The translations under genes and the position numbers were made by a program. Below the pieces are notes generated by a model. That model had not been told where the DNA came from, made no database searches, and saw only the letters and a program-made list of their open reading frames with translations. Of a stretch of DNA of 64,000 nucleotides, positions 3,132 to 61,417 are shown piece after piece (positions within the stretch are counted from its first letter, which is position 1; every line of letters begins with the position of its first letter). The DNA comes from Escherichia phage ECML-10, in sequence record OL631479.1, one strand, 5' to 3'.

Positions 3132-3137
3132 GGAATT

Positions 3138-4127: not shown

Positions 4128-4136
4128 TCAAGTATA

Positions 4137-4165: not shown

Positions 4166-4173
4166 GAGGCACT

Positions 4174-5413: not shown

Positions 5414-5440
5414 TAACGCATAGTATGATTGGAGAACGCA

Positions 5441-5632
5441 ATGACACTAAAGTTAACAATTCCAGACAGCTTTTCAGAAGACTTTATCCCAGAAATGATG
5501 GGTAAGATGCGATCATTGCTTGATCAGATCGAGGAAGCTGTTTGGGAAGACGATGCTGTAGTGGCTAACGAGCTGGTAGATAAGTGTAAAAGTATTATTG
5601 ATGCAGTTGAAGAATACCACGGAGGTTTTTGA
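5441..5632 (+). CDS. hypothetical small acidic protein
   Basis: ATG after TTGGAGA; 63 aa. Confidence 0.4.
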   Translation: MTLKLTIPDSFSEDFIPEMMGKMRSLLDQIEEAVWEDDAVVANELVDKCKSIIDAVEEYHGGF

Positions 5633-6833: not shown

Positions 6834-6834
6834 A

Positions 6835-7035
6835 ATGGGCAGATGTTCTAAAGGTGGCGATCCTGTAGTCAGATACGGTGACTGGCTAGAGGTGTATGAT
6901 CTGGGAGGTAAGCTGGTGTATGCCTCCAGGATCACCCAAGACATGTGCTCCGATATGTTCAACAGATACCTTGCATTTAAGGCCAACATAAACCCAGACG
7001 AAATTTCCAAAATTAAAACAAGGAGAGCTAAATAA
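6835..7035 (+). CDS. hypothetical protein
   Basis: 66 aa ORF tightly packed between neighbours. Confidence 0.4.
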   Translation: MGRCSKGGDPVVRYGDWLEVYDLGGKLVYASRITQDMCSDMFNRYLAFKANINPDEISKIKTRRAK

Positions 7036-8578: not shown

Positions 8579-8588
8579 GGTGGTGAAG

Positions 8589-8819
8589 ATGAGTCATAAC
8601 TCCAAGTGGAAGGATCTTGGTTTTGCAAGTCGGTCAGAGTATGTTGGTTGGCTTTGGTTCAACGGCCTGACAAATGATATTAAAATGTATGATGATGTTT
8701 ATTATGACGAGTATACAGGCAAAATTATAAATATCTCTGTAGAAGAGGATACCTTTATCCAGCAAGATACTGATACCTGCCTTGATAAATACGTTGATGA
8801 AGTGGAGGAAGCAAATTGA
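8589..8819 (+). CDS. hypothetical acidic protein
   Basis: ATG after AAGGTGG RBS. Confidence 0.4.
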   Translation: MSHNSKWKDLGFASRSEYVGWLWFNGLTNDIKMYDDVYYDEYTGKIINISVEEDTFIQQDTDTCLDKYVDEVEEAN

Positions 8820-11131
8820 TCACCAAGGTAATTAAAAGCAACGGATGTGAAGTGGCATTCGATCCAGAACGTTTAAATAAGGCAGCTATTTTCGGTGACG
8901 ACGGTAACGGCAATTGGTCACATATTGCACTGGATGCATACAAACGACTGTATGATGGATGTACAACCAAAGAAGTTAACCAAGCTATCATAGACTCCTG
9001 TGTTAGCCGTAAAGACGAAGCACATTCCTGTATGGCTGGTCGTGTTCTTATTGGTCAGATTTATAAAGAGGCTTTTGGAGGGTTTACAAAGATCCCTTCC
9101 TTACCATCATTTTACAACGACATGGTTGAGAAAGGGTATTGGGAGGATATGGGATATAGCTTTACCGAGCTAAACACTTTAGACGCTGTTATTGACCACA
9201 GTAAAGATCTCGGTTATGGCTATGCAGTCCTTAAACAGTTTCGCGACAAATACGGGATCAAGGATACTCTTAAAGACACCTTGTTTGAATCTCCCCAGAT
9301 GATGTTTATGGGGATAGCAATGGCTGTCATGAAGAATATGCCGAAAGAACGTCGTATCAACGATGTTGTAAAATTATACACTTATCTGTCCGACTTAAAG
9401 ATCAATGCCCCGACACCGTACTTAAACGGGCTGCGCACAGGTAAGACAGGGTATGCATCTTGTTGTGTAATAAAAGCTGACGATACAGCAAAATCTATTG
9501 GTGTGGCACGTGAAGTTGCGTACACAATGACGGTTAACCAAGCAGGTATCGGCTACTATTTATCATCAAGATCTGCAGGTGATGGTGTTCGCGGTAACAC
9601 TATTAAACACATGGGTAAGATTCCATATTATCGAGGTATTGACGCTGGGGTTAAGGAGAACAGGCAACAATCACGTGGCGGTTCTGCAACAGTATCATTC
9701 CTTGCACTAGACCCGCAGATTGATGAGCTAATCCGCTTGAGAAACCCTATGACTGTTGCTTCAAAAAGAATCAACACCATGGACTACTCCATCGGTATTA
9801 ATAGGTCGTTTATCAACCGTGTGGCTAAGAATTTAGATTGGATGCTTGTTTCTTATAAGCACGCTCCTCAACTGCATGAGGGTATCTTCACCATGTCTAT
9901 GGAGGAGTTTGATGCAGAGGTTGATCGTATTGCTAAAGATGACAGTATCCCTAAAACATGGATCCGAGCCAGAGATCTTGCTGTTGAACTGATCACGCAG
10001 CGTACTGAGGTGGGAAGGCTGTATGTATACTGGACAGATGAGATGAATAGACATACACCTTTTAAAGATGTGATCTATTCAAGTAACCTGTGTGCAGAAA
10101 TAGCCCTCCCTACAAAAGGCTATTCAGATATGCGTAATATCTTCAAGTACGATGCTGATGATGGAGAGGTTGCATTGTGCTTCCTGTCATCTCTTGTAGC
10201 TGGAAGGGTTACTCCAGAGGAGTATGAGGATGTTGCATACTACACGGTGCTTATGATTGACAATGTTATGGAAATCATGACATATCCGTATGAAAATATG
10301 GAAAGCACAGTTAAAAAACGCAGATCCATCGGGGTTGGCCTTACCAATGTTGCACATTTTATTGCCAGCCACAAGGTTACTTACGGATCTCCTGAAAGTA
10401 AACAGCTTGTTCACGATCTTGCAGAACTTCACAGCTACAGCTTGCATAAGGCAAGTTTACGGTTGGCAAAAGAGCGTGGTGTCTGCGAGTGGATGCATAA
10501 AACAAAATATCCAGAAGGTTGGTTACCAATCGACACCTATAACAAAGAGGTCGATAGCGTGGTGAAAGATCCTTCTCTTAAACAGGATTGGGAAGGGTTA
10601 CGTAAAGAAATTATTGAAAATGGTGGGCTACGTAATAGCGTTCTTGAAGCATATATGCCTAATGAAAGCTCTTCGCTGGCAACAAACACCACTAACGGGG
10701 TTTATCCTGTCCGTGAGCACATTATCTTTAAAAAGTCGCCACAAGGGCAGGTGCTGTTTATCGTTCCTGACTATGATGAGTTGAAAGAGTATTACACCTC
10801 GGCTTGGGACGTTGATACTAACGACATGATCGATATGTATGCTGTGATTCAAAAATTTACAGGTCAGGCAATCAGCGCGGATTTATACATAGACTACACC
10901 AAGTTGAAAGATGGTAAAATTTCAATGAAGGAGCAGCTAGGGTACCTTATCCGTGCCACTAAATTCGGGATGAAGACATGGTATTATTTAAACTCCAGGG
11001 TTGGTGCTGGTGACTCATTGGCAGAGGAACTTCATGCCAAGAAACAGGCTGAAGATGAAACCAGAAAGAACTACCCTTTGATTGCAGATAGTTCGGTTGA
11101 AGATCCGTATTGCGAAAGTTGTGCACTATAA
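8816..11131 (+). CDS. nrdA: ribonucleotide reductase class Ia large subunit
   Basis: N-terminal ATP-cone (VIKSNGCEVAFDPERL), active-site NLCAEIALPT, 771 aa. Confidence 0.9.
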   Translation: MITKVIKSNGCEVAFDPERLNKAAIFGDDGNGNWSHIALDAYKRLYDGCTTKEVNQAIIDSCVSRKDEAHSCMAGRVLIGQIYKEAFGGFTKIPSLPSFYNDMVEKGYWEDMGYSFTELNTLDAVIDHSKDLGYGYAVLKQFRDKYGIKDTLKDTLFESPQMMFMGIAMAVMKNMPKERRINDVVKLYTYLSDLKINAPTPYLNGLRTGKTGYASCCVIKADDTAKSIGVAREVAYTMTVNQAGIGYYLSSRSAGDGVRGNTIKHMGKIPYYRGIDAGVKENRQQSRGGSATVSFLALDPQIDELIRLRNPMTVASKRINTMDYSIGINRSFINRVAKNLDWMLVSYKHAPQLHEGIFTMSMEEFDAEVDRIAKDDSIPKTWIRARDLAVELITQRTEVGRLYVYWTDEMNRHTPFKDVIYSSNLCAEIALPTKGYSDMRNIFKYDADDGEVALCFLSSLVAGRVTPEEYEDVAYYTVLMIDNVMEIMTYPYENMESTVKKRRSIGVGLTNVAHFIASHKVTYGSPESKQLVHDLAELHSYSLHKASLRLAKERGVCEWMHKTKYPEGWLPIDTYNKEVDSVVKDPSLKQDWEGLRKEIIENGGLRNSVLEAYMPNESSSLATNTTNGVYPVREHIIFKKSPQGQVLFIVPDYDELKEYYTSAWDVDTNDMIDMYAVIQKFTGQAISADLYIDYTKLKDGKISMKEQLGYLIRATKFGMKTWYYLNSRVGAGDSLAEELHAKKQAEDETRKNYPLIADSSVEDPYCESCAL

Positions 11132-26560: not shown

Positions 26561-26589
26561 TTGACACAACGCTTCAGATTTAGTATCAT
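26561..26589 (+). promoter_or_regulatory. sigma70-like promoter followed by leader hairpin
   Basis: TTGACA-17 nt-TATCAT; hairpin AGAGGGTTTGGTTCCCTCT at about 26598-26620 before the RBS. Confidence 0.45.
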
Positions 26590-26636
26590 TGTTTTCAAAG
26601 AGGGTTTGGTTCCCTCTTCTTTAAAAGGAACACGTT

Positions 26637-26954
26637 ATGCAAATTGAAATCACTGGCAACGTAGAAATCACTGAAGGTATGGTGTCTTTCATTTCCCACA
26701 AAATGTCTAAGCTGGAGCGTTTGCACCCCTCTGCCAACTATACACGTGTGAGTGTAAAAGTTGAAAATGATCACCAGGAAGTCATGGCGTTCATTTTTGA
26801 CACTTCCGGAAAAGAAGTTATTGCCAAAGCTAAAGGCAGTGACGCTTACGAGGCAACTGACCGTATGGTAGATGTTGCAGCACGTCAGTTGGCTAAATGC
26901 GGTGGAAAGAAAGGTAAAGGGAAGGGCAAAGTAAAGATTGACTTTGGAGAATGA
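26637..26954 (+). CDS. hypothetical protein with Gly/Lys-rich C-terminus
   Basis: 105 aa; C-terminal GGKKGKGKGKVK. Confidence 0.45.
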   Translation: MQIEITGNVEITEGMVSFISHKMSKLERLHPSANYTRVSVKVENDHQEVMAFIFDTSGKEVIAKAKGSDAYEATDRMVDVAARQLAKCGGKKGKGKGKVKIDFGE

Positions 26955-34972: not shown

Positions 34973-35236
34973 TTATTTGTTGCTCATCCAGTTTTCCCAA
35001 GCTGCCTGATAATCTGCCTCACTACGGCGGATCTCTTCTTGTTCTTCAAGTCGGATCTCTTCTTCCAGGTACCCCAAGATGTCAGCCTTTTTGGTCTGGC
35101 GTAGCATCCAGTCATCTTTTTTGCGGGTAAAGATCTTATAAGCTTTCTCGCAAACCTCTTTTTTGCTACCTTTCTGGACTTCCAGAACACGATAAGCCAT
35201 ATATTGAACTAGTTTGAGCTGGTCAAGACGTTTCAT
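34973..35236 (-). CDS. hypothetical protein
   Basis: AAAGAGGAAAAA RBS; 87 aa. Confidence 0.5.
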   Translation of the reverse strand: MKRLDQLKLVQYMAYRVLEVQKGSKKEVCEKAYKIFTRKKDDWMLRQTKKADILGYLEEEIRLEEQEEIRRSEADYQAAWENWMSNK

Positions 35237-35298
35237 GATGTTTTTCCTCTTTATGTGGTTTTTGTTCAGTGGGCCTTTTGGCCCGTGTCATTATCTTA

Positions 35299-35571
35299 TT
35301 ACTTACGGCGGCAGAATTCAAGCGTTTTTAATTGATAATCTTCCTCAGCCTGGAGTACAACCGCCTCGATCATTTCGTTGGCATTGTTGAAGCCATACCC
35401 TTTAGCGAACTCATCCGCACCACCTTCGTGATCATGTTCTGCGTTCATCGCTTCCACGAAATGGAATTCAAGATTATTGAGATAAGGGCTTGATGTTCCG
35501 TCCTCTTTTTCGATGAGATCCCAAATAGCATTAAAACGTGATTCGACTTCTTGATTAATCCAGCTTGACAT
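35299..35571 (-). CDS. hypothetical acidic protein
   Basis: AGAGAGGAAAA RBS; 90 aa. Confidence 0.5.
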   Translation of the reverse strand: MSSWINQEVESRFNAIWDLIEKEDGTSSPYLNNLEFHFVEAMNAEHDHEGGADEFAKGYGFNNANEMIEAVVLQAEEDYQLKTLEFCRRK

Positions 35572-35782
35572 AATGTTTTCCTCTCTTCTGGTTGTTGTGT
35601 GGGCACTTTTGCCCCTTCAAGATAAATGTTACCCCACCACCTGGCAGATGTCAACGGTTTTTATAGTTCTTATATGACAGGCAGGCCCGGTGATTGTCTC
35701 CCCCCGTCGCCAGGTGCCTGCCGTGTAATAAGTATAACAAAAAACAGGACCATTGCAAGCCCTGTTTTCTAGTTAATAAGGA

Positions 35783-35974
35783 TTATATTTTTTCGCCTAT
35801 GTAGTCCGGTCGGTTTTTCTCTGTCATGCGCTTTAGCAATTCTTGCATGTTACTTATGGCTTGTAGTGTATCCTCTTCCAGACTTGAATCAACATAATCA
35901 GGATCGTCTATGACCTTTCTATGATTATGATAACGCAGTACCGCCAATACCTTTCTAACTTGTTCAACATTCAT
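35783..35974 (-). CDS. hypothetical protein
   Basis: 63 aa ORF; weak RBS. Confidence 0.35.
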   Translation of the reverse strand: MNVEQVRKVLAVLRYHNHRKVIDDPDYVDSSLEEDTLQAISNMQELLKRMTEKNRPDYIGEKI

Positions 35975-36123
35975 TTTTATCGCTCTTTAAAACAAGGTGC
36001 CAACCGTTTCTAGTAGATCACTGACCACCAGGACAATACTGATCAGCACATATCTAACCATAAGGGGAAAGAGCGCCAGCGATCCCGCCACAATCCCCAA
36101 GGTAATGATTATCTTTTTCACGG

Positions 36124-36408
36124 TTAACGGTTAACGTAAGCTTTACCGTTCACGGTTATGGGTAGATCCTCCAGGTCTGGATCTTCCTTAAGGTCGCGAG
36201 CAAGCTCACCGCACCGGATACCCTCGAATCCGTAGTACTCTGTTGTACCGTCATTAAAAGTTTTAGCGGCAAGGCATAAGCGATAAGTAACCCCGATTTG
36301 ATTGACGGCATGGATATCCGTTAGATCAACCTCTTTTGCCAGCTCTTTAGCCATTACAGGCGCATTAAGTCCAACAACCAGGGCAACTACTGCGATCATC
36401 TTTTTCAT
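36124..36408 (-). CDS. secreted/periplasmic small protein
   Basis: AAAGAGGATAG RBS; N-terminal signal-peptide-like MKKMIAVVALVVGLNAPVMA. Confidence 0.5.
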   Translation of the reverse strand: MKKMIAVVALVVGLNAPVMAKELAKEVDLTDIHAVNQIGVTYRLCLAAKTFNDGTTEYYGFEGIRCGELARDLKEDPDLEDLPITVNGKAYVNR

Positions 36409-36499
36409 TGTGTCTATCCTCTTTCTGCTACGTTTAAGGCGGCGGTAACCGCCTGTTTATGTTTTGTTGGTTAATTTTCGGGTATCGGTATAAATTAAA

Positions 36500-36715
36500 C
36501 TATGCTGTACGCTCAACTATAACAACGGCTTGAGGGATCTCACCTTCAACCACTATCAAGGCTTTTTTCTGCGTGATAGATATCTTTACCCGCTTCAGTG
36601 TGGCGGTAAAATCTTTCATTTCGTCACGTGGTGTTTTAGTGCAATGCCAGATCTCGGGCTTGCCGATCTGTAAGCTGCGCAAGAATTCCGTTTTACCTGT
36701 TTTATTCGTGATCAT
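36500..36715 (-). CDS. hypothetical protein
   Basis: ATG after AAGGTGA; 71 aa. Confidence 0.4.
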   Translation of the reverse strand: MITNKTGKTEFLRSLQIGKPEIWHCTKTPRDEMKDFTATLKRVKISITQKKALIVVEGEIPQAVVIVERTA

Positions 36716-36917
36716 TTGATTCACCTTATCCAATACCGTGGGAAGATAGGATCATGTTAGCCATAGTTGCAACCACTCCAACCGATAATGCCAGGCCAAC
36801 TACTACAACCGTGAAAATTTTATCTAACATGATTCTACCCTCATTAATGGGCGTTGCCTTATTGCCCCGCCCTACGAAATACATTCTACCTGATTTACAA
36901 TTGTTGTCAAACTATTT

Positions 36918-37096
36918 TAACGATAATCATCATATGCTTTATTGACCTGGCGAATATAACATTCAAAAGCTAGATCAATAGATTTATATTCACGGATATA
37001 TTCACCATAGGAAACCACATACATTTCTATAGCTTCCTCATATGCGAGGAGAATAGAATCTAAGCCTACGATCTCAGTCTTTGCAATAATAGCCAT
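36918..37096 (-). CDS. hypothetical small protein (59 aa)
   Basis: ATG after AAAGAGGATAAAAA preceded by GC hairpin; not in the 60-aa ORF track. Confidence 0.4.
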
Positions 37097-37172
37097 GATT
37101 TTTATCCTCTTTGTGGTTGGTGGGGCTTGTTGCCCCCATTTGATTTATATATTACAGTCTTATATGGTCATG

Positions 37173-37406
37173 TCAACTATTTTCAAAAAATTTTTCTGCT
37201 GTGATATTTTTCCCGGTAGGGTTCGCTACTTTTAAAATTCTATCATGCACCGGACGCCCGAAAGAATAAGATCCGTATACAGTAAACCAATAATTGCCGT
37301 CAGGCTGTACTATTACCGTCGCATATGGTACGCCTTTTTCGTTTTTGCTGACAAAATAGATCACATTGCCATTAATAGCCTCGGCGCGTTTAATTTGTTC
37401 CATCAT
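37173..37406 (-). CDS. hypothetical protein
   Basis: AGGTGA RBS; 77 aa. Confidence 0.45.
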   Translation of the reverse strand: MMEQIKRAEAINGNVIYFVSKNEKGVPYATVIVQPDGNYWFTVYGSYSFGRPVHDRILKVANPTGKNITAEKFFENS

Positions 37407-37469
37407 GATGATTCACCTATCTTTATTTTTTCATAGTTTCAGGAGGGGGCCTTTTCGGCCCCGCCAGGT

Positions 37470-37754
37470 TTATTTATTGATAGCGTGCAGCGGGAAAGGT
37501 ACGCCAGGTTGATAGATAACCTTTACAACCTCATCAGGACAAAAGAAATTGCAGAACTCACCGCAATAGGCCTCATCCTCTTTCAACTCTTCATCAACAT
37601 ACTCAAAAAAGTAGTCGATGCTTGGATAATCTTGACCAGGGTTATAATCAACCATAGTGAGGACCAGTTCAAGATCATTGCGGATGATATGCATACCAGC
37701 TTTTAAATACTTCGCTTCCATTTTTACTACATCGCCAGCGGTAACAATAGCCAT
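37470..37754 (-). CDS. hypothetical acidic protein
   Basis: start placed at internal ATG (MAIVTAGDVV) with RBS. Confidence 0.45.
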   Translation of the reverse strand: MAIVTAGDVVKMEAKYLKAGMHIIRNDLELVLTMVDYNPGQDYPSIDYFFEYVDEELKEDEAYCGEFCNFFCPDEVVKVIYQPGVPFPLHAINK

Positions 37755-37979
37755 GGTTTTAACTCCTGTTTCTGTTAATGATTGGAGGCATAACCCCCCT
37801 CGACAACTCTTATTATCCATATTGTAGGGCTTGATGCAAGTACTTCTTTAAAAAATTTTTAAGTGCCTTGGAGGCCGCTGTAACGCCAAAATAATAAAGG
37901 CCATGCAACCGCATAGCCTTTATGTGATTATATCGCTGCAGGCCCTGCTAGGGGCCTTATTTTGCATCATTTGCCGGAA

Positions 37980-38279
37980 CTATACAGAGAAAACATCGTT
38001 CACAATAGCGATCACAATGCCGCCCACCTTGTCACGGTCAACAATGCACAAATCACCATAGATCATGTGGTAGTCTGGATGATCTTTCACGGAATAGTCA
38101 ATGAGCGTTTTCTTGTCGTCCAGCTTTGTAACTTCCATTCTCATAACGATATGAGAATCATCAAAGGCATTATTCCGAAAAGTCATAGCCTGACCACCAT
38201 GGCACCCAGTGATCTCCACTTCCACACCGTCTACGATCTGACCATTAAAGAAATAAAGATTATTAGCCAGGATAAACAT
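37980..38279 (-). CDS. hypothetical protein
   Basis: ATG after AAGGAGTG RBS. Confidence 0.45.
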   Translation of the reverse strand: MFILANNLYFFNGQIVDGVEVEITGCHGGQAMTFRNNAFDDSHIVMRMEVTKLDDKKTLIDYSVKDHPDYHMIYGDLCIVDRDKVGGIVIAIVNDVFSV

Positions 38280-38324
38280 GTTTATCACTCCTTGTTAACT
38301 GCGTGTTATTTTTACCACGATTAA

Positions 38325-38376
38325 AATTTACTTTACTGATGGCCCTGGCGTCAAGGCCATCTAAAAATAAATTTAC
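38325..38376. repeat. conserved ~50-bp intergenic stem-loop element, copy 1
   Basis: TTTACTTTACTGATGGCCCTGGCGTCAAGGCCATCTAAAAATAAATTTAC; 7-bp stem GATGGCC/GGCCATC. Confidence 0.7.
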
Positions 38377-38573
38377 AGGCCTACAATCTCTTTGATTCGT
38401 TTAACTGCTGCCTCAGCGCCTTGGGGGTAGAAATTATGGTAACCGATCACGCGAGTGATACTAATTGCAGTTTGATGATCTTCATAATAGCCCTTGAAGA
38501 TTTCTTGACCGTCAATCAGCACGGCAATTTTTTCTTCTTTTTTGAAGTTAATAACGCGGATATTGTTGCTCAT
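38373..38573 (-). CDS. hypothetical protein
   Basis: AAAGGAGAAACAAA RBS; 66 aa. Confidence 0.5.
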   Translation of the reverse strand: MSNNIRVINFKKEEKIAVLIDGQEIFKGYYEDHQTAISITRVIGYHNFYPQGAEAAVKRIKEIVGL

Positions 38574-38830
38574 TTTGTTTCTCCTTTCTGGTTTTTGTGT
38601 TGGTGGGGATTAGCTCCCCGTTGATTATTATTATCCATATTTCGGACCGGATTGCAACACCCCGGAAGAAAAATTTTTTGAAAAAGTTAGGCCCCCAGGG
38701 ATCGGGGGCCGTTATCAGTTACTTACAGCGATAAAATACATCCCTACGCCTAACAATATTTCAAGGGCGATGATCTCAAGCCATACCATAACCCGGCGCA
38801 CCTTATCGGTGCGGGGCTTATCCTTGGTTG

Positions 38831-39078
38831 TCATCGTCTCCCCCTTTCATCCTGGTAGTAGTGACGTGGTTTACAATGGCCCCCAGGAGTACCATCACCA
38901 CGCACATCACAAGAAAAATTATCTCTGTCGTTGTTCGATCCATTGTTATAAAATTCCTTAAGATCAGGCCTGAAAATAAAGCGTTCGTTATTGAATCCAT
39001 CACGCCAGGCGGCTGGCTTCAAATCTTCATCAAAGGGATTAATTAACGTGGTATTATTTAAACGGCTGGCCCACATAT
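38831..39078 (-). CDS. hypothetical protein (frame choice uncertain)
   Basis: two overlapping minus-strand ORFs here (38831-39094 and 38818-39003); neither can be preferred with confidence. Confidence 0.3.
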
Positions 39079-39425
39079 TTTCTATTCCTCTCAAATAGGC
39101 GATCCGCCTCAGTTAAACAAATCTCATGGGCGTGATCTCTGGTTTTAGCTTCATCGAAAACCTGTTGTGCAAGGCTGCAGCGTAGGGAGACTGGAAGATC
39201 ACTATAATAGGCGTTGACAAATGTTTGCGCGTCATACAGGTCGGAAAATACTTTACCCTTTCTATTATCGCCTTTGTCAACAATTGCAAGGATAACAAGT
39301 ACAATAGTTGCAACCACCCCCAGGAAAATAGATATAATAAACCATAAAAAGGCGGATCTACCCATCTTGCCAGCGATCCAGGCGTTAAACAAGGCAACTA
39401 ATACGGCCAAAATAATAAATTCCAT
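39054..39425 (-). CDS. membrane protein (two predicted TM helices)
   Basis: start at MEFIILAV after AAAGAGG; hydrophobic helices FIILAVLVALFNAWIAG and FLWFIISIFLGVVATIVLVILAIV. Confidence 0.5.
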   Translation of the reverse strand: MEFIILAVLVALFNAWIAGKMGRSAFLWFIISIFLGVVATIVLVILAIVDKGDNRKGKVFSDLYDAQTFVNAYYSDLPVSLRCSLAQQVFDEAKTRDHAHEICLTEADRLFERNRKYVGQPFK

Positions 39426-39489
39426 TCTATGTACCTCTTTTGCAGTTCTGTTTAACAATAAGGCGGCAAATATGCCGCCTGTTACCTGA

Positions 39490-39870
39490 TTAAAAATTAT
39501 CGCCGTAAATCTTTCCGCTTTCTGCCCACACCACCACGCGGGGCATACTATCCCACACGTCTTGTTTTAGATTGAGCGCGTGCAATTCTTCGGTGGTGCC
39601 CATACCAGGCACGGGCTGATTGTATACTGCAAAACGACCACCTGCATAATCATAGGCCAGGGTTAAATCACACTGAATCATCTTTTTGATCATGGCGTTG
39701 AGCATAGCGTTAGCCGCATACTGGTCACGTTTTAAAGGCAACTCTTTGATTAGTTTGCGATAGTTTTCAATGTGATCGCACACTGTTTCACGTGGAAGAT
39801 CTTTCATATCCTCGCGAAAGGTAACCAGGTTAAACATAACGGTGTCAATAGCTTTAGTAGTGTTTTTCAT
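39490..39870 (-). CDS. hypothetical protein
   Basis: AAAGAGGAAAACATT RBS; 126 aa. Confidence 0.5.
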   Translation of the reverse strand: MKNTTKAIDTVMFNLVTFREDMKDLPRETVCDHIENYRKLIKELPLKRDQYAANAMLNAMIKKMIQCDLTLAYDYAGGRFAVYNQPVPGMGTTEELHALNLKQDVWDSMPRVVVWAESGKIYGDNF

Positions 39871-39960
39871 AATGTTTTCCTCTTTGTTTTGTGTGGGGCA
39901 AACGTCTTGCCCCCCTTGAGTTTTAATATAGCAAGTTTTTAGATTATTGCAACACTTTAT

Positions 39961-40137
39961 TTATGAAAAACTCATCTCTCCATATTCATCCACATCAAAC
40001 CGCCAATCATTGGCCTCAATAAGGCCGATCAGGTTTTCGGTAGTGAACTGTTCTAGATAGGCCTCCTCCAGGTCTACGTAAACCTTGCGGGATAGCTCCC
40101 GTACCGTCTCGGTGATCAGCTCTTCCAGGTCTTCCAC
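39961..40137 (-). CDS. hypothetical small acidic protein (58 aa, GTG start)
   Basis: first ORF downstream of the minus-strand promoter at 40185-40212; weak RBS. Confidence 0.3.
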   Translation of the reverse strand: MEDLEELITETVRELSRKVYVDLEEAYLEQFTTENLIGLIEANDWRFDVDEYGEMSFS

Positions 40138-40158
40138 TTTGTTTTCTTTGTTAGTGGC

Positions 40159-40212
40159 GGGAAGTTTTCCCGTTTACATGCTTAAGTATACTTATCGAGA
40201 TTTACTTGTCAA
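40159..40212 (-). promoter_or_regulatory. sigma70-like promoter with palindromic operator-like leader
   Basis: minus strand TTGACA-16 nt-TATACT followed by GTAAACGGGAAAACTTCCC (palindrome GGGAA-aac-TTCCC). Confidence 0.55.
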
Positions 40213-40462
40213 CACTATTTTTTAAATTATTGTGGCGCAAAATGTTTAAAATCTCTTCAACGTCATCAACACGGCGGCAATTTTTAAACGCTACCAATTG
40301 CCCCAAGATTTTGATCACTGGGCGGCCTTGCCAGTGCCCCTGGAGAAAGCGCGCTTTAACTTTATCGGTGGAACTATCACGCCACCAAACTGCTTTATTA
40401 TTGCAGTAGTAAAAATTATTCAGGACAACATCAACTTTATCAAAATTTTTTAATTTACGCAT
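40202..40462 (-). CDS. hypothetical protein
   Basis: GAAGGAAGGAG RBS; 86 aa. Confidence 0.5.
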   Translation of the reverse strand: MRKLKNFDKVDVVLNNFYYCNNKAVWWRDSSTDKVKARFLQGHWQGRPVIKILGQLVAFKNCRRVDDVEEILNILRHNNLKNSVDK

Positions 40463-40707
40463 GGCGTTTACTCCTTCCTTCTTGCTTTGATGTGGTTAGT
40501 ATATCCGGACTGTTCCAAGGTGTCAATCTTTAAATAAAATCACTGTTAATGATATTTTTAACACCATAAAACGGCCCTAGGTGATGTTTTCAGGTCAATA
40601 AAGGGGATTGCATAGGTAGGGGCTTTTGTGGCGTTTGTGGGGCCAACCAGGGGCGCTATTCGTAGGATAGAAATAAAAAGCCCCGCACAATGGCGGGGCG
40701 TTGGTTG

Positions 40708-40905
40708 CTATTTGTCTTTATGGCGGTACCGTTCCGCCTGTCGTTCACGTTCCAAAAGCAGGCCCGGCAGTTTACGATCATAATGATTCCGCCAGATCTT
40801 CCCAAATCTTTTTGGCTTATTTAGTTTATTGTTACGCTGGCGGCGTTCCGGCAGCTCTTCGGAATCATGAGATCGCTTTACAATCTTTTCAAAATTAATC
40901 TTCAT
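40708..40905 (-). CDS. small highly basic protein
   Basis: ATG after AAGGGGGG; Arg/Lys-rich (RRQRNNKLNKPKRFGKIWRNHYDRK). Confidence 0.45.
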   Translation of the reverse strand: MKINFEKIVKRSHDSEELPERRQRNNKLNKPKRFGKIWRNHYDRKLPGLLLERERQAERYRHKDK

Positions 40906-41243
40906 ATATTCCCCCCTTGCTAACTTCAATATTGGCCTGAATAGCCCGGATACGGCGCTTTATAACTTCCTGATCTGTGTGATCGTATCCCCAAAAGTCT
41001 ACAATTTTTGCGCCCCCCGCTTCCAGGCGGTACAGTGTTTCCTGCATTTTGTAAGCCGGGATCGGTCGCGGTGTTACTTGGTCACCTTCTTTATTTTTAT
41101 ACTTTATAATATAATCTTCATTATCGTTGAATGTCCAAAATGGATATTCTGCAAGGGCGGTACTTTCCTTTTTATCCTGGATCTTGTTTACAATTAAAGC
41201 CGTAGCAATAGCGCCAATAATAAAACTAGCCCCGCTGATCATG
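40895..41243 (-). CDS. membrane-anchored protein
   Basis: ATG after AAAGGAGAAAG; N-terminal TM helix ISGASFIIGAIATALIV. Confidence 0.5.
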
Positions 41244-41317
41244 TACTTTCTCCTTTCATTGTGTTGATAAACTATCTTTATAGATGGCCCTGCTACCAGG
41301 ACCACCGAAAAACCAGC

Positions 41318-41563
41318 TTATTTGACGATACCGACAAAACAGATCCCGCCTTCCCCTATATAGGCAATATCGGTAATTTGATAATTTGTCAAGATCCGCG
41401 TGTTCAGATCATTAATAAAATCGGTCATCGCGTTGGTGTAGTTGTCTTCCGTGTCTAAGGCATAATCCCAGGTGTAAACCTTTTTACGTCCGAAGCCTTT
41501 TACCATGATACGGGCGCTTTTGGTGTTGGTAGGGGCATAATATTTGGTGATTAGTGCTGCCAT
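41318..41563 (-). CDS. hypothetical protein
   Basis: ATAGGAG RBS; 81 aa. Confidence 0.45.
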   Translation of the reverse strand: MAALITKYYAPTNTKSARIMVKGFGRKKVYTWDYALDTEDNYTNAMTDFINDLNTRILTNYQITDIAYIGEGGICFVGIVK

Positions 41564-41604
41564 GGTTTTAACTCCTATGCATTAGTTCAGTGTTAACAGT
41601 ATAA

Positions 41605-41656
41605 CGTTTACTTTATTGATGGCCCTGGAGTCAAGGCCATCTAAAAATAAATTTAC
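41605..41656. repeat. conserved ~50-bp intergenic stem-loop element, copy 2
   Basis: TTTACTTTATTGATGGCCCTGGAGTCAAGGCCATCTAAAAATAAATTTAC. Confidence 0.7.
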
Positions 41657-41994
41657 TCGTTTTCTTCCAGTTCTGCAAGCTCTTCTTTCACTTCTTCAAG
41701 CTCTGTATGCAATTCCTGGTATTCTTCATCGTCCTCAATATCCAGGCTGTCGATGTAGTCGCTAAATCCGCAGCGGTAAGCGATAGGATCTAGCTCCTTG
41801 AGGATACGCGACGGAAGAAAAGAAATGTTTCCGATCATAATTTCGCCGTAGATCTCGTCTAACCATTCATCATAGTTTTCGTCGTACTTGTCCTCGTCGA
41901 TTTCAAAGTTATCGATCTTGTTCTCAAGGTCTGCGATCTGTTTTTTCAGCGCGGCGATCTGCATAGCTTTTTCTGCGGCGGTCATAGTAGTCAT
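41653..41994 (-). CDS. hypothetical acidic coiled-coil protein
   Basis: AAAGGAGAAAACACT RBS; 113 aa, Glu/Asp-rich. Confidence 0.5.
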   Translation of the reverse strand: MTTMTAAEKAMQIAALKKQIADLENKIDNFEIDEDKYDENYDEWLDEIYGEIMIGNISFLPSRILKELDPIAYRCGFSDYIDSLDIEDDEEYQELHTELEEVKEELAELEENE

Positions 41995-42019
41995 AGTGTT
42001 TTCTCCTTTTGTGTGCTCT

Positions 42020-42073
42020 GGGAAGTTTTCCCGTTTACGTGTTTAAGTATATCGATCTAAGTTAGTTTGTCAA
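42020..42073 (-). promoter_or_regulatory. sigma70-like promoter with palindromic operator-like leader (paralog of 40159-40212)
   Basis: minus strand TTGACA-16 nt-TATACT followed by GTAAACGGGAAAACTTCCC. Confidence 0.55.
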
Positions 42074-42193
42074 TTAAAAATTTAAGAAAAATTTTGCAAA
42101 ACTGTTAGCGCTACTCATTAACATTTGCGCCAGGATGTAACCGACAACGCAAACGATAATAGTTATCTTTGTGTATTGGCGTGTAGTGCTCAT
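42074..42193 (-). CDS. small hydrophobic peptide (39 aa)
   Basis: ATG after AAAAAGGGGG; TM-like ITIIVCVVGYILAQMLM; not in the 60-aa ORF track. Confidence 0.35.
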   Translation of the reverse strand: MSTTRQYTKITIIVCVVGYILAQMLMSSANSFAKFFLNF

Positions 42194-42225
42194 CTTAAAG
42201 CCCCCTTTTTCGCTTAGTTGAGATT

Positions 42226-42276
42226 AGTTTACTTTATTGAAGGCCCTGGAGTCAAGGCCATCTAAAAATAAACTTA
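42226..42276. repeat. conserved ~50-bp intergenic stem-loop element, copy 3
   Basis: TTTACTTTATTGAAGGCCCTGGAGTCAAGGCCATCTAAAAATAAACTTAG. Confidence 0.7.
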
Positions 42277-42678
42277 GTAAGTTTTCAGTACTTTACCGTC
42301 CAACCTGTCAAGCTGGATCTCGATAGCTGCAGAAAACCTATTGTAAACCACATCGCCCATAGAATCCAACCAGTCTATGACATTATACACTTGCTCTTTG
42401 TTCTTGCAGGTCCGGATCCGTTTCATGATGTAAGCCGGATCAATATTGGTACTCTCGTTGGTGTTCCCCTGTACCTGGTTTGCCGTATTAGTTACATCTT
42501 TAATGGCCTTTACCACCACCTGGAATGGCTTTAAGGTGCCTTTTGCGTTCATCTCACGCGCTTTTGCGGCGCGGTTGTTATATGTTACACAACGGCGGCA
42601 AATGTTGACCAAATGCATGTCAATAATTTTTTCATCGTTTGCCAGTTCGTTCATGATGCGGCGTACGTTCTTATTCAT
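42274..42678 (-). CDS. hypothetical protein
   Basis: CAGAGGAAAAGCT RBS; 134 aa. Confidence 0.5.
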   Translation of the reverse strand: MNKNVRRIMNELANDEKIIDMHLVNICRRCVTYNNRAAKAREMNAKGTLKPFQVVVKAIKDVTNTANQVQGNTNESTNIDPAYIMKRIRTCKNKEQVYNVIDWLDSMGDVVYNRFSAAIEIQLDRLDGKVLKTY

Positions 42679-42757
42679 AGCTTTTCCTCTGTGTTGGCGG
42701 GATGTTCCCCGCCTTTTGTGTCTAGTTTACTTAAATTTTGCAGCGTGTCAATGATTT

Positions 42758-43156
42758 TTATTCGTGGGCGCATGTTACAATGTGCTTTTTATAGCCTAGG
42801 TGGTCAGCAAGTGCCGACAAAAACTCTTCTTCGTAGATCCAGCCGTCGGCAGTGATCCCCATAGCATTTAATGCGCTCTCAAGTGCTGCGTTAGCTTTAT
42901 CATAACCGTGACCGCCCGCCTTGCCGCCAGTATAGCCGTACTTATTGTTCTTGTTGTCGTGTATCCAAAAAACGCAGTAGTGAGTGTTCCCGCTGGCGGC
43001 GGCATAATACCGGATCTCAGCTACTTCGTGCAAATTATTGTCATCGTCCAGGCCCACCAGATTATAAGCCTTGTAAAATCCACGATCACGGCGGCAGTTC
43101 TTGACATCAGAAAAAGAAAAGTCCGCATTATCAAAATTAAAGGTAGTGGTTTTCAT
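42758..43156 (-). CDS. hypothetical protein
   Basis: AAGAGGATAAAATC RBS; 132 aa. Confidence 0.5.
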   Translation of the reverse strand: MKTTTFNFDNADFSFSDVKNCRRDRGFYKAYNLVGLDDDNNLHEVAEIRYYAAASGNTHYCVFWIHDNKNNKYGYTGGKAGGHGYDKANAALESALNAMGITADGWIYEEEFLSALADHLGYKKHIVTCAHE

Positions 43157-43220
43157 GATTTTATCCTCTTAGTGTCTTTTGTGCTTTTAGTGTATTTTGT
43201 GTCAGGCCATATGTCAATAC

Positions 43221-43418
43221 TTATTTTTTATTAAACCAGTGGTTGATCTGGCCTTTTGTCAGGGCGCAACGATTAAGTTGGTGCCGGGTATAGCTCTGAC
43301 CGCGACGGAATTTATAAAGGCCTTGCCCGTTGTTGATGGTTACGTCCACCTGGCAAACCATTTGATCGGTGACCACCTGGCGAGTGCTGCGACGTACTTT
43401 GATTCCGTAGGCGTTCAT
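43221..43418 (-). CDS. small basic protein
   Basis: ATG after AGAGAGGATAAAAAAATC; 65 aa. Confidence 0.45.
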   Translation of the reverse strand: MNAYGIKVRRSTRQVVTDQMVCQVDVTINNGQGLYKFRRGQSYTRHQLNRCALTKGQINHWFNKK

Positions 43419-43497
43419 GATTTTTTTATCCTCTCTGTTAATTAGTGTGGTGTTGTTCACCTTGCGAGGATAAGAATAACAAGAACTGTCCGAGCTG

Positions 43498-43657
43498 TCA
43501 ACCATTAGTTAAAATTATTTTTGCCCCTGCCAGGTTAACCATCATTTTTTCGTACTCTTCTTTATGTTCCAACGCTCCCGCCATAGCCTTTTCAACCAGG
43601 GCGATAGCCTCAGCGTCATTAATAGCTACATTTTCCAGGGGGATTATATTACCTTTC
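43498..43657 (-). CDS. hypothetical small protein (53 aa)
   Basis: ATG after GGAGGTACAAAA; not in the 60-aa ORF track. Confidence 0.4.
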
Positions 43658-43818
43658 ATTTTTGTACCTCCCCTTCAATTGTTACCTATCCTATAGCATA
43701 GGCCCACCAGGTTTACAAGCCTTCATTCTCTCCTGCCTGGTCAGTTAGGTCCTGCCAGGCTGGCCCCGCCAGGTTGCAGCGGTTAGCGCATCAGGTTAGA
43801 AAAATTTTTTGAAAAGTG

Positions 43819-43950
43819 TTGACAGCGGCCCCGCCAGGTGGCACAATATACCTATCGAAAGGACGGCAGGCACCGGTGACGGGGGAGACAACCACCGGGG
43901 ATGGGCGCTGCATAAAATGAGAACGGTTATCATTATCATTTAAAAATTTA
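43819..43950 (+). ncRNA. candidate small RNA unit 1 (promoter plus ~90-nt structured transcript)
   Basis: AT-rich UP-like tract, TTGACA-17 nt-CACAAT, then CCGGUG stem with loop containing GGGAGACAAC, ending GAGAACGGTTATCATTATCATTT; no ORF. Confidence 0.35.
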
Positions 43951-43961
43951 TGCAAAAAATC

Positions 43962-44075
43962 CTTGCTTTCTTTGTCCTGTGTGATACTATAATAACAAGC
44001 CGGGGCAACAGGGGCCGGGAGACAATCACCGGGCCTGCCCGTTATTCTGCAAACGAGAATGATTATCATTCAAAA
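43962..44075 (+). ncRNA. candidate small RNA unit 2 (paralog of unit 1)
   Basis: TATAAT at 43988, then GGGAGACAATCACCGGG and GAGAATGATTATCATT, homologous to unit 1. Confidence 0.35.
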
Positions 44076-44179
44076 TTCTAAATGAGAACTCCTCGCATTT
44101 AATAAATTTAATTAGCATGCTAATTACCCTCCGTAACAATTTCCTATAAAACAGTATCCCATAAAATATTCCCATATAG

Positions 44180-44640
44180 AAATTTTAAAAATCCATTTCT
44201 GAAAACGAAAAATCGATTTCGTCCCCAAAAATTTCAGGTCGAGATCCGGAACGATTTCCAGAAAATCCGATTCAGAAAACGAAAAACAGATCGAGTACTG
44301 AGAAATTTATCGAGAAAAATTTTCAGAAAATCCAAGCCATGAAATGAAAAGTAGATCGAGTACTTGGAAAGCTGCACCGCAACTTCAAGATAGTGGTTAG
44401 ATTGTTACCATAGAAGGTTAAGGGCAAGTGGAGGAAGTTCTAGTAGAGGGAGGTTAGCATGTGTGGGAAATCTATAATGGTGGCCTGGAATATGGTGCAA
44501 ACGATAGGATGAGTTATTCAGCTTGTCGCGCCTACTCTGAAAAATCCATTTTAGTTTTCGATCCATTTTCTGATTTTCTAAGAATTTTAAAATATCCAGC
44601 CCGGTGAAATATCAAAAGGAGGAAATCCATTTTAGAAATC
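44180..44640. repeat. iteron-like degenerate direct-repeat region
   Basis: repeated CAGAAAATCC(R)ATT, GAAAACGAAAAA and AGATCGAGTACT motifs in an AT-rich ORF-free stretch. Confidence 0.6.
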
Positions 44641-48152: not shown

Positions 48153-48214
48153 TTTTCAGATCTCCTTATACAAAAATGCCCCACCCTTTCGGGCAGGGCT
48201 ATGTTAGTTAGGTG

Positions 48215-59017: not shown

Positions 59018-59801
59018 TAATTCTGCTCCTTACTGCAGGCTCGTTTGCTAAGAATACGGCTTTTGCCCAGCCACGTGGTGTGAGGCTTCGGATCATCTTC
59101 GTTCTTGCACTCTTTCCACCCAGCTTAGCGTGTTGCATGGAGTACCCACTAACCGCGTCAACTATTTGCGGGACAGGTTTTGTGTCCGGGATTATAAATC
59201 CATTACCTATCCAGCCGCAAGTTATTTTTGGATAGGCATCACGTGGAGCTATAAATTCAGGAAACCAGGGGTTTACATCATCCTCCGGTAAATACCCGCC
59301 ATAGTCAGAAGGGTGAAAACGGTAATCAGGTTTGCGCCACAGTGTGGACATAACACCCACAGGATTCTCTACATGCCACGGGCAATCGTAAATCTCTCCT
59401 AGCTCTTCCGCAACCCGAGCATCCTTTACAGCATTAATTTGGATCAAAGGATCCTTAGCCAGCTTTTTCTTAAAATGTGCAGCACCTGATACCGCTAAAT
59501 GCGTGCACGGAGGAAATGCAAGAATAAAGTCTGGAGCTGGATACATGCAAAAAGTTTCCTGAGGGAACCATGGGTCAATCCAATAATCCACATAGTGAAT
59601 GTTAGGATGATCGGTTATCACCTCTGCATAACTGCCGTGGTCAGCACCTTCTGCATTAAAGCACAGGTACAGGTACCCAGCTTTTGCCCAGTCAATAACT
59701 GCACCACCAGACCCGTCAAATAGACTCCACACAACACCTTTGTGGTAGTGTTCTTTGTAGATGAATTTCAATTTGCTGTCTCCTAATGCAAAAAGCCCCA
59801 C
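59007..59801 (-). CDS. compact DNA (cytosine-5)-methyltransferase-like protein
   Basis: motif I WSLFDGSGG, motif IV FPPCTH (catalytic Cys), motif VI ENPVG; only 264 aa. Confidence 0.5.
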   Translation of the reverse strand: MGLFALGDSKLKFIYKEHYHKGVVWSLFDGSGGAVIDWAKAGYLYLCFNAEGADHGSYAEVITDHPNIHYVDYWIDPWFPQETFCMYPAPDFILAFPPCTHLAVSGAAHFKKKLAKDPLIQINAVKDARVAEELGEIYDCPWHVENPVGVMSTLWRKPDYRFHPSDYGGYLPEDDVNPWFPEFIAPRDAYPKITCGWIGNGFIIPDTKPVPQIVDAVSGYSMQHAKLGGKSARTKMIRSLTPRGWAKAVFLANEPAVRSRINGK

Positions 59802-59822
59802 CCTTTCGGGCAGGGCCTAGTG

Positions 59823-60713: not shown

Positions 60714-61015
60714 CAGAAACCTCCAACTTCTTCAGCAAATGCAGCTGCTGTCGTCGCTGCATCCAGATAGGACTCTAGTTCACGGGCTGCACGTTTGTAA
60801 ATTGAGTGGCGCATATCGTTTGGCAGTTGGTGGAAGTCCACCTCTTCACCGTTGTGGTAAACACGCACATCGGTAATTTGTCTAAATCCGTAATAGTCAA
60901 CATCAGAGTCACGGCACTCCGAGTCTGGCAACTGGACAACTGCTTGAGCTTCCACAGTAAACATATCGTCAAGTTCGAAATCGATTTCAAAAGTGTATGG
61001 TTTATAACGTTTCAT
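60713..61015 (-). CDS. hypothetical protein
   Basis: AAGGAAG RBS downstream of GGGGAGG hairpin; 100 aa. Confidence 0.45.
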   Translation of the reverse strand: MKRYKPYTFEIDFELDDMFTVEAQAVVQLPDSECRDSDVDYYGFRQITDVRVYHNGEEVDFHQLPNDMRHSIYKRAARELESYLDAATTAAAFAEEVGGF

Positions 61016-61075
61016 CGTTTAGTGCTTCCTTAGTTTTTGTGGGGAGGAGTGCCTCCCCTTTATACTTACATCTTA

Positions 61076-61417
61076 CTACTGGAGGTCTTCAGAGTCAAGC
61101 TCAAAAAGAATCAAACTGTGCATACCTGCAGAGAGATCAACACACCCTGCAACGATAAGGGTCTGATAGTAAGGTTCAGCACCCTCGATGTCTTCGTTAA
61201 AATCCACAACAAGATAGTCACCTTTGTTAAAGGTGTATTTGTCCGATGTAAACGCAAAACCTGCCCAGTCCCCTACTGCAGGATCTTTATCAGTCACCTT
61301 TGTTAGCAGTAGATCTTTTTCACGAGATCTTTTAGTAAAATCGTGAATCACAACATCCTTCTCTTCAGGAGTTGGATTGCCACACACGTAGTTAACGATA
61401 TTTCTCCACAAACTCAT
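61076..61417 (-). CDS. hypothetical protein
   Basis: 113 aa ORF overlapping helicase stop. Confidence 0.45.
   Translation of the reverse strand: MSLWRNIVNYVCGNPTPEEKDVVIHDFTKRSREKDLLLTKVTDKDPAVGDWAGFAFTSDKYTFNKGDYLVVDFNEDIEGAEPYYQTLIVAGCVDLSAGMHSLILFELDSEDLQ

Follow-up and report, generated by a model that had tools for sequence, protein, structure and literature searches.

What do the GC-rich hairpins do that stand in front of most small leftward genes of Escherichia phage ECML-10? The question is raised by a stretch of 64,000 nucleotides (nt) of sequence record OL631479.1 (the window), in which a cluster of small minus-strand genes occupies 34.9–43.7 kb. A preliminary description of this cluster placed a GC hairpin 10–25 nt before a strong ribosome-binding site (RBS) at almost every gene, saw no U-run behind the hairpins, and took them for processing or stabilising structures, akin to the RNase III sites of T7-type early regions, rather than for terminators. 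We found that the hairpins belong to a cassette headed by a promoter: each of the five hairpins cited there has a strong sigma-70 promoter in front of it and begins 8–13 nt past the −10 hexamer, a feature absent from that description. Below we argue, with modest confidence, for a stabilising role at the 5′ end of the mRNA, and assign the RNase III idea to a different stem-loop of the same cluster.

Short GC hairpins follow sigma-70 promoters at a fixed distance

In a scan for perfect stems of at least 5 bp with at least 4 G-C pairs, the GC hairpin was recovered at all five cited sites on the minus strand (37136–37122, 35614–35601, 38619–38605, 39913–39895 and 42713–42696), and no U-run follows any of them, the tails reading ACCAACCACAAAG and similar. 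The strong RBS behind the hairpins was likewise recovered: the Shine-Dalgarno (SD) sequence AGAGGAWAA occurs nine times in the window where 1.6 occurrences are expected, a count reached in none of 100 shuffles, and seven of the nine lie inside the small-gene cluster. The distance needs correction, hairpin and SD being separated by 5–20 nt and not by 10–25 nt, and 'almost every gene' slightly overstates what is nevertheless a majority. A GC hairpin is present in 17 of 20 spaced junctions, i.e. those among the 27 gene starts in 34.9–43.7 kb that have a spacer of at least 60 nt. Promoter and short hairpin occur together at ten of these junctions, a long bipartite stem-loop at four, a hairpin without recognisable promoter at three (one terminator-like), and a promoter without significant hairpin at three. 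The short promoter-linked hairpins are hereafter called class 1 and the bipartite stem-loops class 2.

The coupling between promoter and hairpin greatly exceeds chance. Eight of the 97 promoter-like coding-strand sites in the window have a hairpin that starts 6–14 nt after the −10 hexamer, as compared to 0.91 by random placement (at most 6 in 5000 trials), and the other offsets are essentially empty. Over a total of 171 kb, made up of the window's minus-strand half and 13 related loci, 57 of the 82 hairpins within −40 to +80 of strong promoters start at +9 to +13. The hairpin keeps a nearly constant distance from the −10 hexamer (10.8 ± 1.6 nt) and a much more variable one from the start codon (24 ± 5.9 nt), and is therefore tied to the promoter and not to the start codon. 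Assuming that transcription starts at the seventh nucleotide after the −10 hexamer, which is usually a purine following a pyrimidine, the first paired base of the hairpin falls at about +3 to +8 of the RNA, with 2–7 unpaired nt ahead of it. From these predicted start sites we infer that the class-1 hairpin is the first structure of its own mRNA; a literature search for transcript 5′-end data from Vequintavirinae or Stephanstirmvirinae found none.

Predicted leaders were folded and compared with 200 dinucleotide shuffles each, a control that the preliminary description had proposed. The outcome was favourable for eight of the 11 modules, with energies of −8.6 to −16.8 kcal/mol and z scores of −2.45 to −3.82, and unfavourable for three, which fold no better than their shuffles. 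Between hairpin and start codon, A makes up 55% of the leaders and U 9%, where the background has 25% U; the dinucleotide UU occurs six times where 27.7 are expected, and G outside the SD amounts to 9%. The leader, poor in U and G, therefore cannot pair with the SD, and the RBS has a predicted unpaired probability of 0.47–0.86. RNase E prefers A/U-rich, U-containing sites, few of which are offered by the U-poor leader.

The complete cassette reads, in order, an UP-like A/T tract (often), a sigma-70 promoter (TTGACA or TTGCAA, a spacer of 16–17 nt, TAnnnT), 8–13 nt, a GC hairpin of 5–9 bp with a loop of 3–6 nt, an A/C-rich leader of 5–20 nt poor in U and G, the SD AGAGGAWAA and ATG. Ten modules lie in 35.2–42.8 kb and one at 61.0 kb; those marked as cited figure in the preliminary description:

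Module A, 35234–35321, minus strand: −35 TTGAAT 35321–35316, −10 TAAGAT 35298–35293, hairpin GGGCCaaaaGGCCC 35284–35271, SD AGAGGAAAA 35250–35242, ATG 35236; −10.7 kcal/mol, z −3.44
Module B (cited), 35569–35654, minus strand: −35 TTGACA 35654–35649, −10 TAACAT 35631–35626, hairpin GGGCAaaagTGCCC 35614–35601, SD 35584–35576, ATG 35571; z −2.45
Module E, 36828–36910, minus strand: −35 TTGACA 36910–36905, −10 TAGAAT 36888–36883, hairpin GGGCG...CGCCC 36872–36849, ATG 36830; −16.8 kcal/mol, z −3.82
Module F (cited), 37094–37176, minus strand: −35 TTGACA 37176–37171, −10 TAATAT 37154–37149, hairpin GGGGCaacaaGCCCC 37136–37122, SD AGAGGATAA 37110–37102, ATG 37096; −10.5 kcal/mol, z −1.51
Module H (degenerate here), 37752–37839, minus strand: −35 TTGCAT 37839–37834, −10 GATAAT 37817–37812, weak hairpin 37801–37785, ATG 37754; z 0.01
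Module K (cited), 38571–38657, minus strand: −35 TTGCAA 38657–38652, −10 GATAAT 38635–38630, hairpin GGGGAgctaaTCCCC 38619–38605, ATG 38573; z −2.72
Module N (cited), 39868–39952, minus strand: −35 TTGCAA 39952–39947, −10 TATATT 39930–39925, hairpin GGGGCAAgacgtTTGCCCC 39913–39895, SD 39883–39875, ATG 39870; z −2.87
Module O, 40135–40212, minus strand: −35 TTGACA 40212–40207, −10 TATACT 40190–40185, hairpin CGGGAAaacTTCCCG 40172–40158, joined to a 5′-truncated gene remnant (GTG 40137); z −2.95
Module T, 41992–42073, minus strand: −35 TTGACA 42073–42068, −10 TATACT 42051–42046, hairpin GGGAAaacTTCCC 42032–42020, ATG 41994; weak, −5.5 kcal/mol, z −1.07
Module V (cited), 42676–42751, minus strand: −35 TTGACA 42751–42746, −10 TAAACT 42729–42724, hairpin GGCGGGgaacatCCCGCC 42713–42696, SD 42690–42682, ATG 42678; −13.3 kcal/mol, z −3.66
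Module Y (outside the cited span), 61013–61098, minus strand: −35 TTGACT 61098–61093, −10 TAAGAT 61075–61070, hairpin GGGGAGGcactCCTCCCC 61058–61041, ATG 61015; z −2.78

The same cluster contains hairpins without a promoter and promoters or leaders with little or no hairpin:

Hairpin D, 36437–36454, minus strand: promoter-less hairpin AGGCGGttaccgCCGCCT, no U-run, recognisable promoter absent, 28 nt 5′ of ATG 36408
Hairpin G, 37446–37462, minus strand: promoter-less hairpin GGGGCCgaaaaGGCCCC, abutting the upstream gene's stop codon, 5′ of ATG 37406, no U-run
40460–40526, minus strand: hairpin-less promoter TTGACA-17-TATACT with an A-rich leader, before ATG 40462; z +0.77
43154–43217, minus strand: hairpin-less or nearly hairpin-less leader; fold against shuffles z +0.53
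43416–43501, minus strand: hairpin-less or nearly hairpin-less leader; fold against shuffles z −1.74

The cassette is conserved and spread among related phages

Escherichia phages navn, JES2013 and rV5 share 93–96% identity with the cited span over 98–100% of its length and are among about 250 matching records of the genus Vequintavirus; judged by these matches, the source of the window is an rV5-like coliphage (Vequintavirus). The counterpart of the small-gene cluster is the set of rV5 open reading frames (ORFs) 165–196, small leftward genes without assigned function, and the downstream genes that we tested (10 of 10) all fall in PHROGs of unknown function. They are probably early genes. The rV5 genome paper counts 33 promoters of the sigma-70 type and 20 terminators, is silent on leader hairpins, and proposes that host RNA polymerase uses sigma-70 promoters genome-wide (PMC3606486), and in Certrevirus sigma-70 promoters with UP elements crowd in a 'likely early' region of small ORFs (PMC7344957). 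The promoters described in these two papers and the early promoters of T5 resemble those of class 1 in being strong, host-type sigma-70 promoters of a small-ORF region, but both papers describe promoters and terminators and not a following hairpin, and T5 promoters lack one: in the first 50 kb of T5, a class-1 hairpin was found at none of 23 strong coding-strand promoters. Since such strong promoters occur without the hairpin, class 1 characterises the lineage and does not simply come with promoter strength.

Comparative work used GenBank phage records (pattern scans of IMG/VR returned two loci each). The class-1 layout is present in nine further Vequintavirus genomes; phAPEC8 and phi92 (Stephanstirmvirinae), one Certrevirus and one Seunavirus have it too, with hairpins of unrelated sequence. 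Across these groups, 38 distinct hairpin sequences occupy the same position, with arms of 5–9 nt and a spacing between arms of 3–9 nt. In the rV5 genome as a whole, the minus-strand modules are found in the small-gene cluster at 108–116 kb, and a single one at 135 kb is the counterpart of module Y; the scan of rV5 also returned a hit at 95 kb without leader and SD, which is not a module, and a hairpin after the plus-strand promoter P144.

Substitutions were compared among ten Vequintavirus genomes, which are not phylogenetically independent of each other: stems (3.5%) are as little changed as the −10 hexamer (3.6%), while the promoter spacer (10.1%), the leaders (11.9%) and above all the loops (25.9%) vary. 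Several loops occur in relatives as the exact reverse complement on an unchanged stem (loci L006–L008 of our set): gacgt/acgtc, aac/gtt and ttaccg/cggtaa. These flipped palindromes are seen at 39895–39913, 40158–40172 and 36437–36454 and their orthologues, the loop of module N being inverted (acgtc) in FV3 and ECP2303 and that of hairpin D in FV3 and Mangalyan. Module K is represented in HdK5, FV3 and ECP2303 by the variant GGGGAGacaCTCCCC, which gains an extra pair over GGGGAgctaaTCCCC through base changes that close the loop. The stem of module T, weak as it is, is invariant across nine relatives.

Between relatives, entire modules are replaced by others that again carry a hairpin. Module E is swapped for other hairpins, e.g. 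GCGGGAAtacTTCCCGC; the position of the degenerate module H holds clean GGGGGgcggCCCCC-type hairpins; and where ECML-10 has module O, relatives have a full-length gene behind GGCGGGAAaacTTCCCGCC. The promoter-less hairpins take part in this turnover: the counterpart of hairpin D in phAPEC8 is a different paired sequence, GGGCGgtaaCGCCC, and the phi92 orthologue of the gene after hairpin G is preceded by a full promoter and hairpin module. In phage Gotham, module F has been lost by deletion. The spacers among the small genes (34973–43659, minus strand) bunch at 62–93 nt in 16 of the 20 spaced junctions, and this tight spacing together with the swapping of modules suggests that the unit of exchange is the promoter–hairpin–RBS–ORF cassette.

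At module O itself, the 58-amino-acid GTG ORF at 39961–40137 (minus strand) is the 3′ remnant of a 207-amino-acid gene of relatives (rV5 ORF185), and promoter and hairpin have been joined to the gene interior via a deletion between two short ACAAAGAAAAYA-like repeats.

Existing records annotate class-1 hairpins inconsistently, and most leave them unmarked. Several are labelled 'putative transcriptional terminator' in the HdK5 record (2599–2613 and 8968–8986 of locus L003), and the phAPEC8 record gives 'putative promoter determined with PHIRE' (8580–8599 and 7165–7184 of locus L010), the PHIRE 20-mer being the hairpin itself. Both labels are probably misassignments. Our search for a paper describing the class-1 or the class-2 element found none, two relevant genome papers lying outside its coverage.

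Possible roles of the class-1 hairpin

RNase E favours accessible 5′-monophosphate ends over base-paired ones, and 5′-terminal stem-loops that stabilise mRNA form a known kind of element (PMC3997798, which lists Emory, Bouvet and Belasco, 1992, and Bouvet and Belasco, 1992). On this background, we consider it somewhat probable, from the anatomy described above, that the class-1 hairpin and its leader form a nuclease-hardened and highly translatable 5′ end of the early mRNAs. The 5′-terminal stem-loop would impede RppH and the 5′-end sensor of RNase E, the U-poor single-stranded leader would offer few sites for direct entry of RNase E and leave the SD unpaired, and the strong SD would load ribosomes, the combined effect being early mRNAs that are both long-lived and highly translated. 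In transcripts that read through from upstream promoters, the hairpins, including those at 36454–36437 and 37462–37446, would act as barriers that shield the segments on both sides. Of the two functions named in the preliminary description, processing or stabilising, it is thus the second that is best supported, while its RNase III analogy fails for the hairpins that it cited.

The closest known counterparts are the ompA and papA leaders, in which a short stable hairpin with little sequence requirement lies at the very 5′ end of a primary transcript, as is predicted for class 1, and is likewise followed by an open leader and a strong RBS. As expected for an element of this type, structure is kept rather than sequence (z ≤ −2.4 in eight of 11 leaders, 38 different hairpin sequences, substitutions of 3.5% in stems against 25.9% in loops). 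Class 1 differs in being a systematic cassette, repeated at about ten neighbouring phage promoters and in relatives, in its U-poor A/C leader, and in that stabilisation is here deduced from anatomy. The protection conferred by the ompA hairpin is reportedly weaker beyond about 4 unpaired 5′ nt, and the predicted class-1 overhang of 2–7 nt is at or past this limit.

Several observations weigh against a stabilising role. The overhang makes several modules borderline with respect to the ompA limit, and the start sites from which it is counted are predicted ones. Three strong promoters of the cluster have no hairpin. The leaders at 37094–37142 (z −1.5), 37752–37805 (z 0.0) and 41992–42038 (z −1.1) fold no better than shuffles, and because of these three modules and of the relative that has lost a hairpin, individual hairpins are dispensable. 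Class-1 stems are nearly invariant and almost all are perfect Watson-Crick palindromes, which are also compatible with a DNA-level operator; true covariation among orthologues is scarce, and substitution density and paralogue diversity were used in its place. Stem variants of the G·U type number about 4 and those of the A·C type 2–4, which does not separate selection on RNA from selection on DNA.

A possible motive for hardened leaders, to be taken as a lead only, is a phage Srd-like protein that would boost RNase E. The Srd protein of T4 enhances the action of RNase E on host mRNA (PMC4980113). In rV5, gp11 (6787–7722 of locus L016, plus strand) is a Srd-like 'anti-sigma' protein; its best PHROG match is one named HNH endonuclease (E 9e-108), its matches to 'decoy of host sigma70' (E 6e-12) and to 'Srd anti-sigma factor' (E 6e-9) are only distant, and a Pfam search of the protein gave no match. 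The distance of this homology, and the location of the gene outside the window, also count against the link.

Could the palindromes act as DNA? At about +3 to +20, a position like that of lac O1, they might bind a dimeric phage or host regulator that silences the early promoters, and we give such an operator a small chance. It would account for the almost perfect palindromes, for their constant spacing from the −10 hexamer, for stems almost devoid of G·U pairs, and for a CGGGAA-n3-TTCCCG subfamily found at several promoters in the ECML-10 window and in phi92. An operator should nevertheless have conserved half-sites at a fixed spacing, whereas the half-sites vary widely among the 38 hairpins (arms of 5–9 nt, 3–9 nt apart); moreover, identical-looking hairpins lie at 36454–36437 and 37462–37446 without a promoter, and the site E hairpin stays with its gene in phAPEC8 although the sequence upstream is a different one and shows no evident promoter.

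An effect on transcription or translation itself, leaving mRNA half-life unaltered, is about as improbable: the nascent hairpin would facilitate promoter escape or the release of sigma, prevent backtracking or R-loops, or simply sequester G/C-rich sequence and so keep the SD open irrespective of what precedes it. The tight coupling of hairpin and promoter and the predicted openness of the RBS regions agree with such an insulator. So does the purine-rich 5′ arm (G 158, A 50, C 38, T 2), which would fit selection on the initial transcribed sequence; purine-rich initial transcripts are said to be linked to escape in studies of the T5 N25 promoter. The early promoters of T5, however, are equally strong without any hairpin, three promoters of the cluster lack one, and promoter-less hairpins exist. 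It is because the two hairpins at 36454–36437 and 37462–37446 look identical to the others and have no promoter that we favour a barrier acting at the RNA level over a role in initiation.

We regard it as unlikely that the hairpin is a recognition tag, read by a phage or host RNA-binding protein that times translation or decay or marks self during the destruction of host mRNA. The architecture is kept across two subfamilies, some arm motifs recur (GGCGGGAA/TTCCCGCC, GCGGCA/TGCCGC), an initial transcribed motif, gtatcacatagg, is conserved in phi92 and phAPEC8, and in phAPEC8 the hairpin was singled out by PHIRE as a repeated 20-mer. Yet the loops, which are 3–9 nt long, are the least conserved part (25.9%) and invert freely, and duplication and exchange of cassettes explain the shared motifs equally well.

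Termination is very unlikely, either on the sense strand, as several putative terminators of the HdK5 record would have it, or of antisense transcription on the plus strand. Class-1 hairpins share with Rho-independent terminators a GC-rich perfect stem and a short loop, besides the label in some records; they lack the U-tract directly 3′ of the hairpin, their coding-strand tails being A/C-rich and almost free of U (9% in the leaders), have a purine-rich 5′ arm and follow a promoter, so the preliminary description was right not to call the cited hairpins terminators. On the plus strand, four (42696, 39895, 37122 and 38599) are followed by T-rich sequence and were caught by a terminator scan, but this T-richness simply mirrors the AT-rich promoter on the other strand and varies from site to site, and canonical U-run terminators exist separately in the cluster (38710–38690, 40699–40680, 37923–37894 and 39480–39461).

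As positive controls for RNase III, the five early sites of T7 were folded like the class-1 and class-2 sequences, at positions that we take to be 890, 1468, 3138, 5887 and 6448 and that all fall in the expected intergenic gaps of the T7 record; four of the five gave coaxial helices of 18–25 bp with a small internal loop, R1.1 being confounded by alternative pairing. It is scarcely credible that host RNase III cuts the cited hairpins to part cistrons as in the T7 early region: they do lie between small genes of a probably early region, lack U-runs and share the cluster with a different element that resembles a T7 site, but their stems measure 5–9 bp (5–10 bp in 80-nt folds) against the 18–25 bp of R0.3, R0.5, R1 and R1.3, intergenic folds form no longer helix around them, and they stand 3′ of each gene's own promoter and not at an internal intercistronic position, so that most transcripts would start there instead of running through.

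Three further candidates were rejected. Lambdoid nut sites are also small promoter-proximal hairpins with an A-rich loop in an early transcript, but they have a fixed pentaloop where class-1 loops are variable and 3–9 nt long, they number two and not about ten, and no boxA (CGCUCUUA-like) lies beside any hairpin, the sole GCTCTT[TA] match in the cluster being intragenic (36074). N4-type hairpin promoters were set aside, as Certrevirus phage CB7 encodes no RNA polymerase (PMC7344957) and the rV5 authors propose the host polymerase. For mimicry of CRISPR repeats, the arm sequences are unrelated.

The class-2 stem-loop and other elements of the region

The T7 analogy of the preliminary description fits not the hairpins that it cited but a separate element, present in four copies, that it did not cite. 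Each copy begins at the stop codon of the upstream gene and folds into an AU-rich lower stem of 10–11 bp, a 2×3 internal loop, a GC-rich upper stem of 10 bp and a tetraloop:

Copy J, 38317–38381, minus strand: 11-bp AU lower stem, 2×3 internal loop, 10-bp GC upper stem, tetraloop; −23.1 kcal/mol, z −4.38
Copy R, 41262–41326, minus strand: divergent sequence, same fold, no TTGAC −35 motif; −24.4 kcal/mol, z −5.50
Copy S, 41597–41661, minus strand: −21.2 kcal/mol, z −5.80
Copy U, 42218–42282, minus strand: −21.0 kcal/mol, z −4.86

When the four copies were made into a covariance model, the model matched each Vequintavirus genome exactly four times and had no match in the rest of rV5 or in the other genera sampled; by BLAST, the element occurs in 120 records, all Vequintavirus-like. 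Among 36 distinct sequences, 98% of cells are paired and four pairs of the lower stem are changed on both sides; the covariation score is reached by no shuffle, and slid registers fall to 36–56% paired. Two U·G pairs are conserved; on the opposite strand they would be mismatches, so selection acts on the RNA structure of the coding strand.

In the same folding procedure, the geometry of class 2 matches that of T7 R0.5 and R1. Like the T7 early signals (R0.3, R0.5, R1, R1.1 and R1.3), and with none of these features common to class 1, class 2 has an AU-rich lower stem and a GC-rich upper stem of about 10 bp each, which make up a coaxial helix of about 20 bp, and a small asymmetric internal loop, and lies directly after a stop codon between early genes. 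It differs in that sequence homology to the T7 signals is absent: in T7 1–8000, the top match of the class-2 model is the R1 RNase III site, an insignificant match (12.8 bits, E 0.89). It differs also by a weak promoter-like motif (TTGACT-18-TAAACT) in three of the four copies, the fourth keeping the fold without the motif. By its fold and position, the element is a candidate for RNase III processing. Both classes extend known kinds of element and are unsurprising in principle.

A broader proposal, which we rate as a long shot, would have the 5′ hairpin and U-poor leader serve as a lineage-wide 'self' mark of rV5- and phi92-like early transcripts, which would either escape an RNase E activity that the phage boosts through its Srd-like protein or be read by a phage RNA-binding factor that times early shut-off. 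Class 2 would add RNase III processing at promoter-less junctions, and the two together would form a two-part early programme at the RNA level.

The candidate host enzymes are RNase E and RppH for class 1 and RNase III for class 2. For the host-takeover transcripts of a large virulent myovirus, this gives a concrete and testable picture, in which strong promoters of the host type are joined to nuclease-resistant leaders and strong RBSs. Recognition of class-1 elements as promoter-proximal leader hairpins would correct the transcript models of the sequenced rV5-like phages, which number more than 200 and include several candidates for therapy or biocontrol, and the modules are compact natural expression cassettes for E. 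coli engineering.

Some further elements were noted in the window. A terminator-like hairpin, CCCTGCCCGAAAGGGTGGGG, with a U-run, a GAAA loop and two G·U pairs, has two copies on the minus strand (59796–59815 and 48179–48198), both immediately ahead of an SD and start codon; a TTGACA-17-TACAAT promoter precedes one of them by 23 nt, which makes that copy a possible attenuator. The gene-free segment 43700–44450 contains two plus-strand promoters that face against the cluster (TTGACA-17-CACAAT at 43819–47 and TATAAT near 43985), and 44170–44370 holds three degenerate direct repeats of 62–65 nt that escape Tandem Repeats Finder.

Three copies of a structured element some 40 nt long, with GGGAGACAAYCACCGGG as its core, form a long-range inverted repeat on either side of the small-gene cluster; one is on the minus strand (35683–35722) and two are on the plus strand (43866–43912 and about 44000–44045), and each lies 8–17 nt 3′ of a sigma-70 −10 hexamer. 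The element may represent a small RNA or else a large 5′ hairpin. An Rfam search of 33–46 kb returned a single sub-threshold chance match (Clostridium-PBP, 34.9 bits against a gathering score of 94.4).

Finally, on the opposite strand, 26561–26640 (plus strand) carries the promoter TTGACA-17-TATCAT, 8 nt, the hairpin AAGAGGGtttggttCCCTCTT, an SD and the ATG of the homologue of rV5 ORF144 (sigma-54 modulation/hibernation-factor-like), and may be a class-1-like module.

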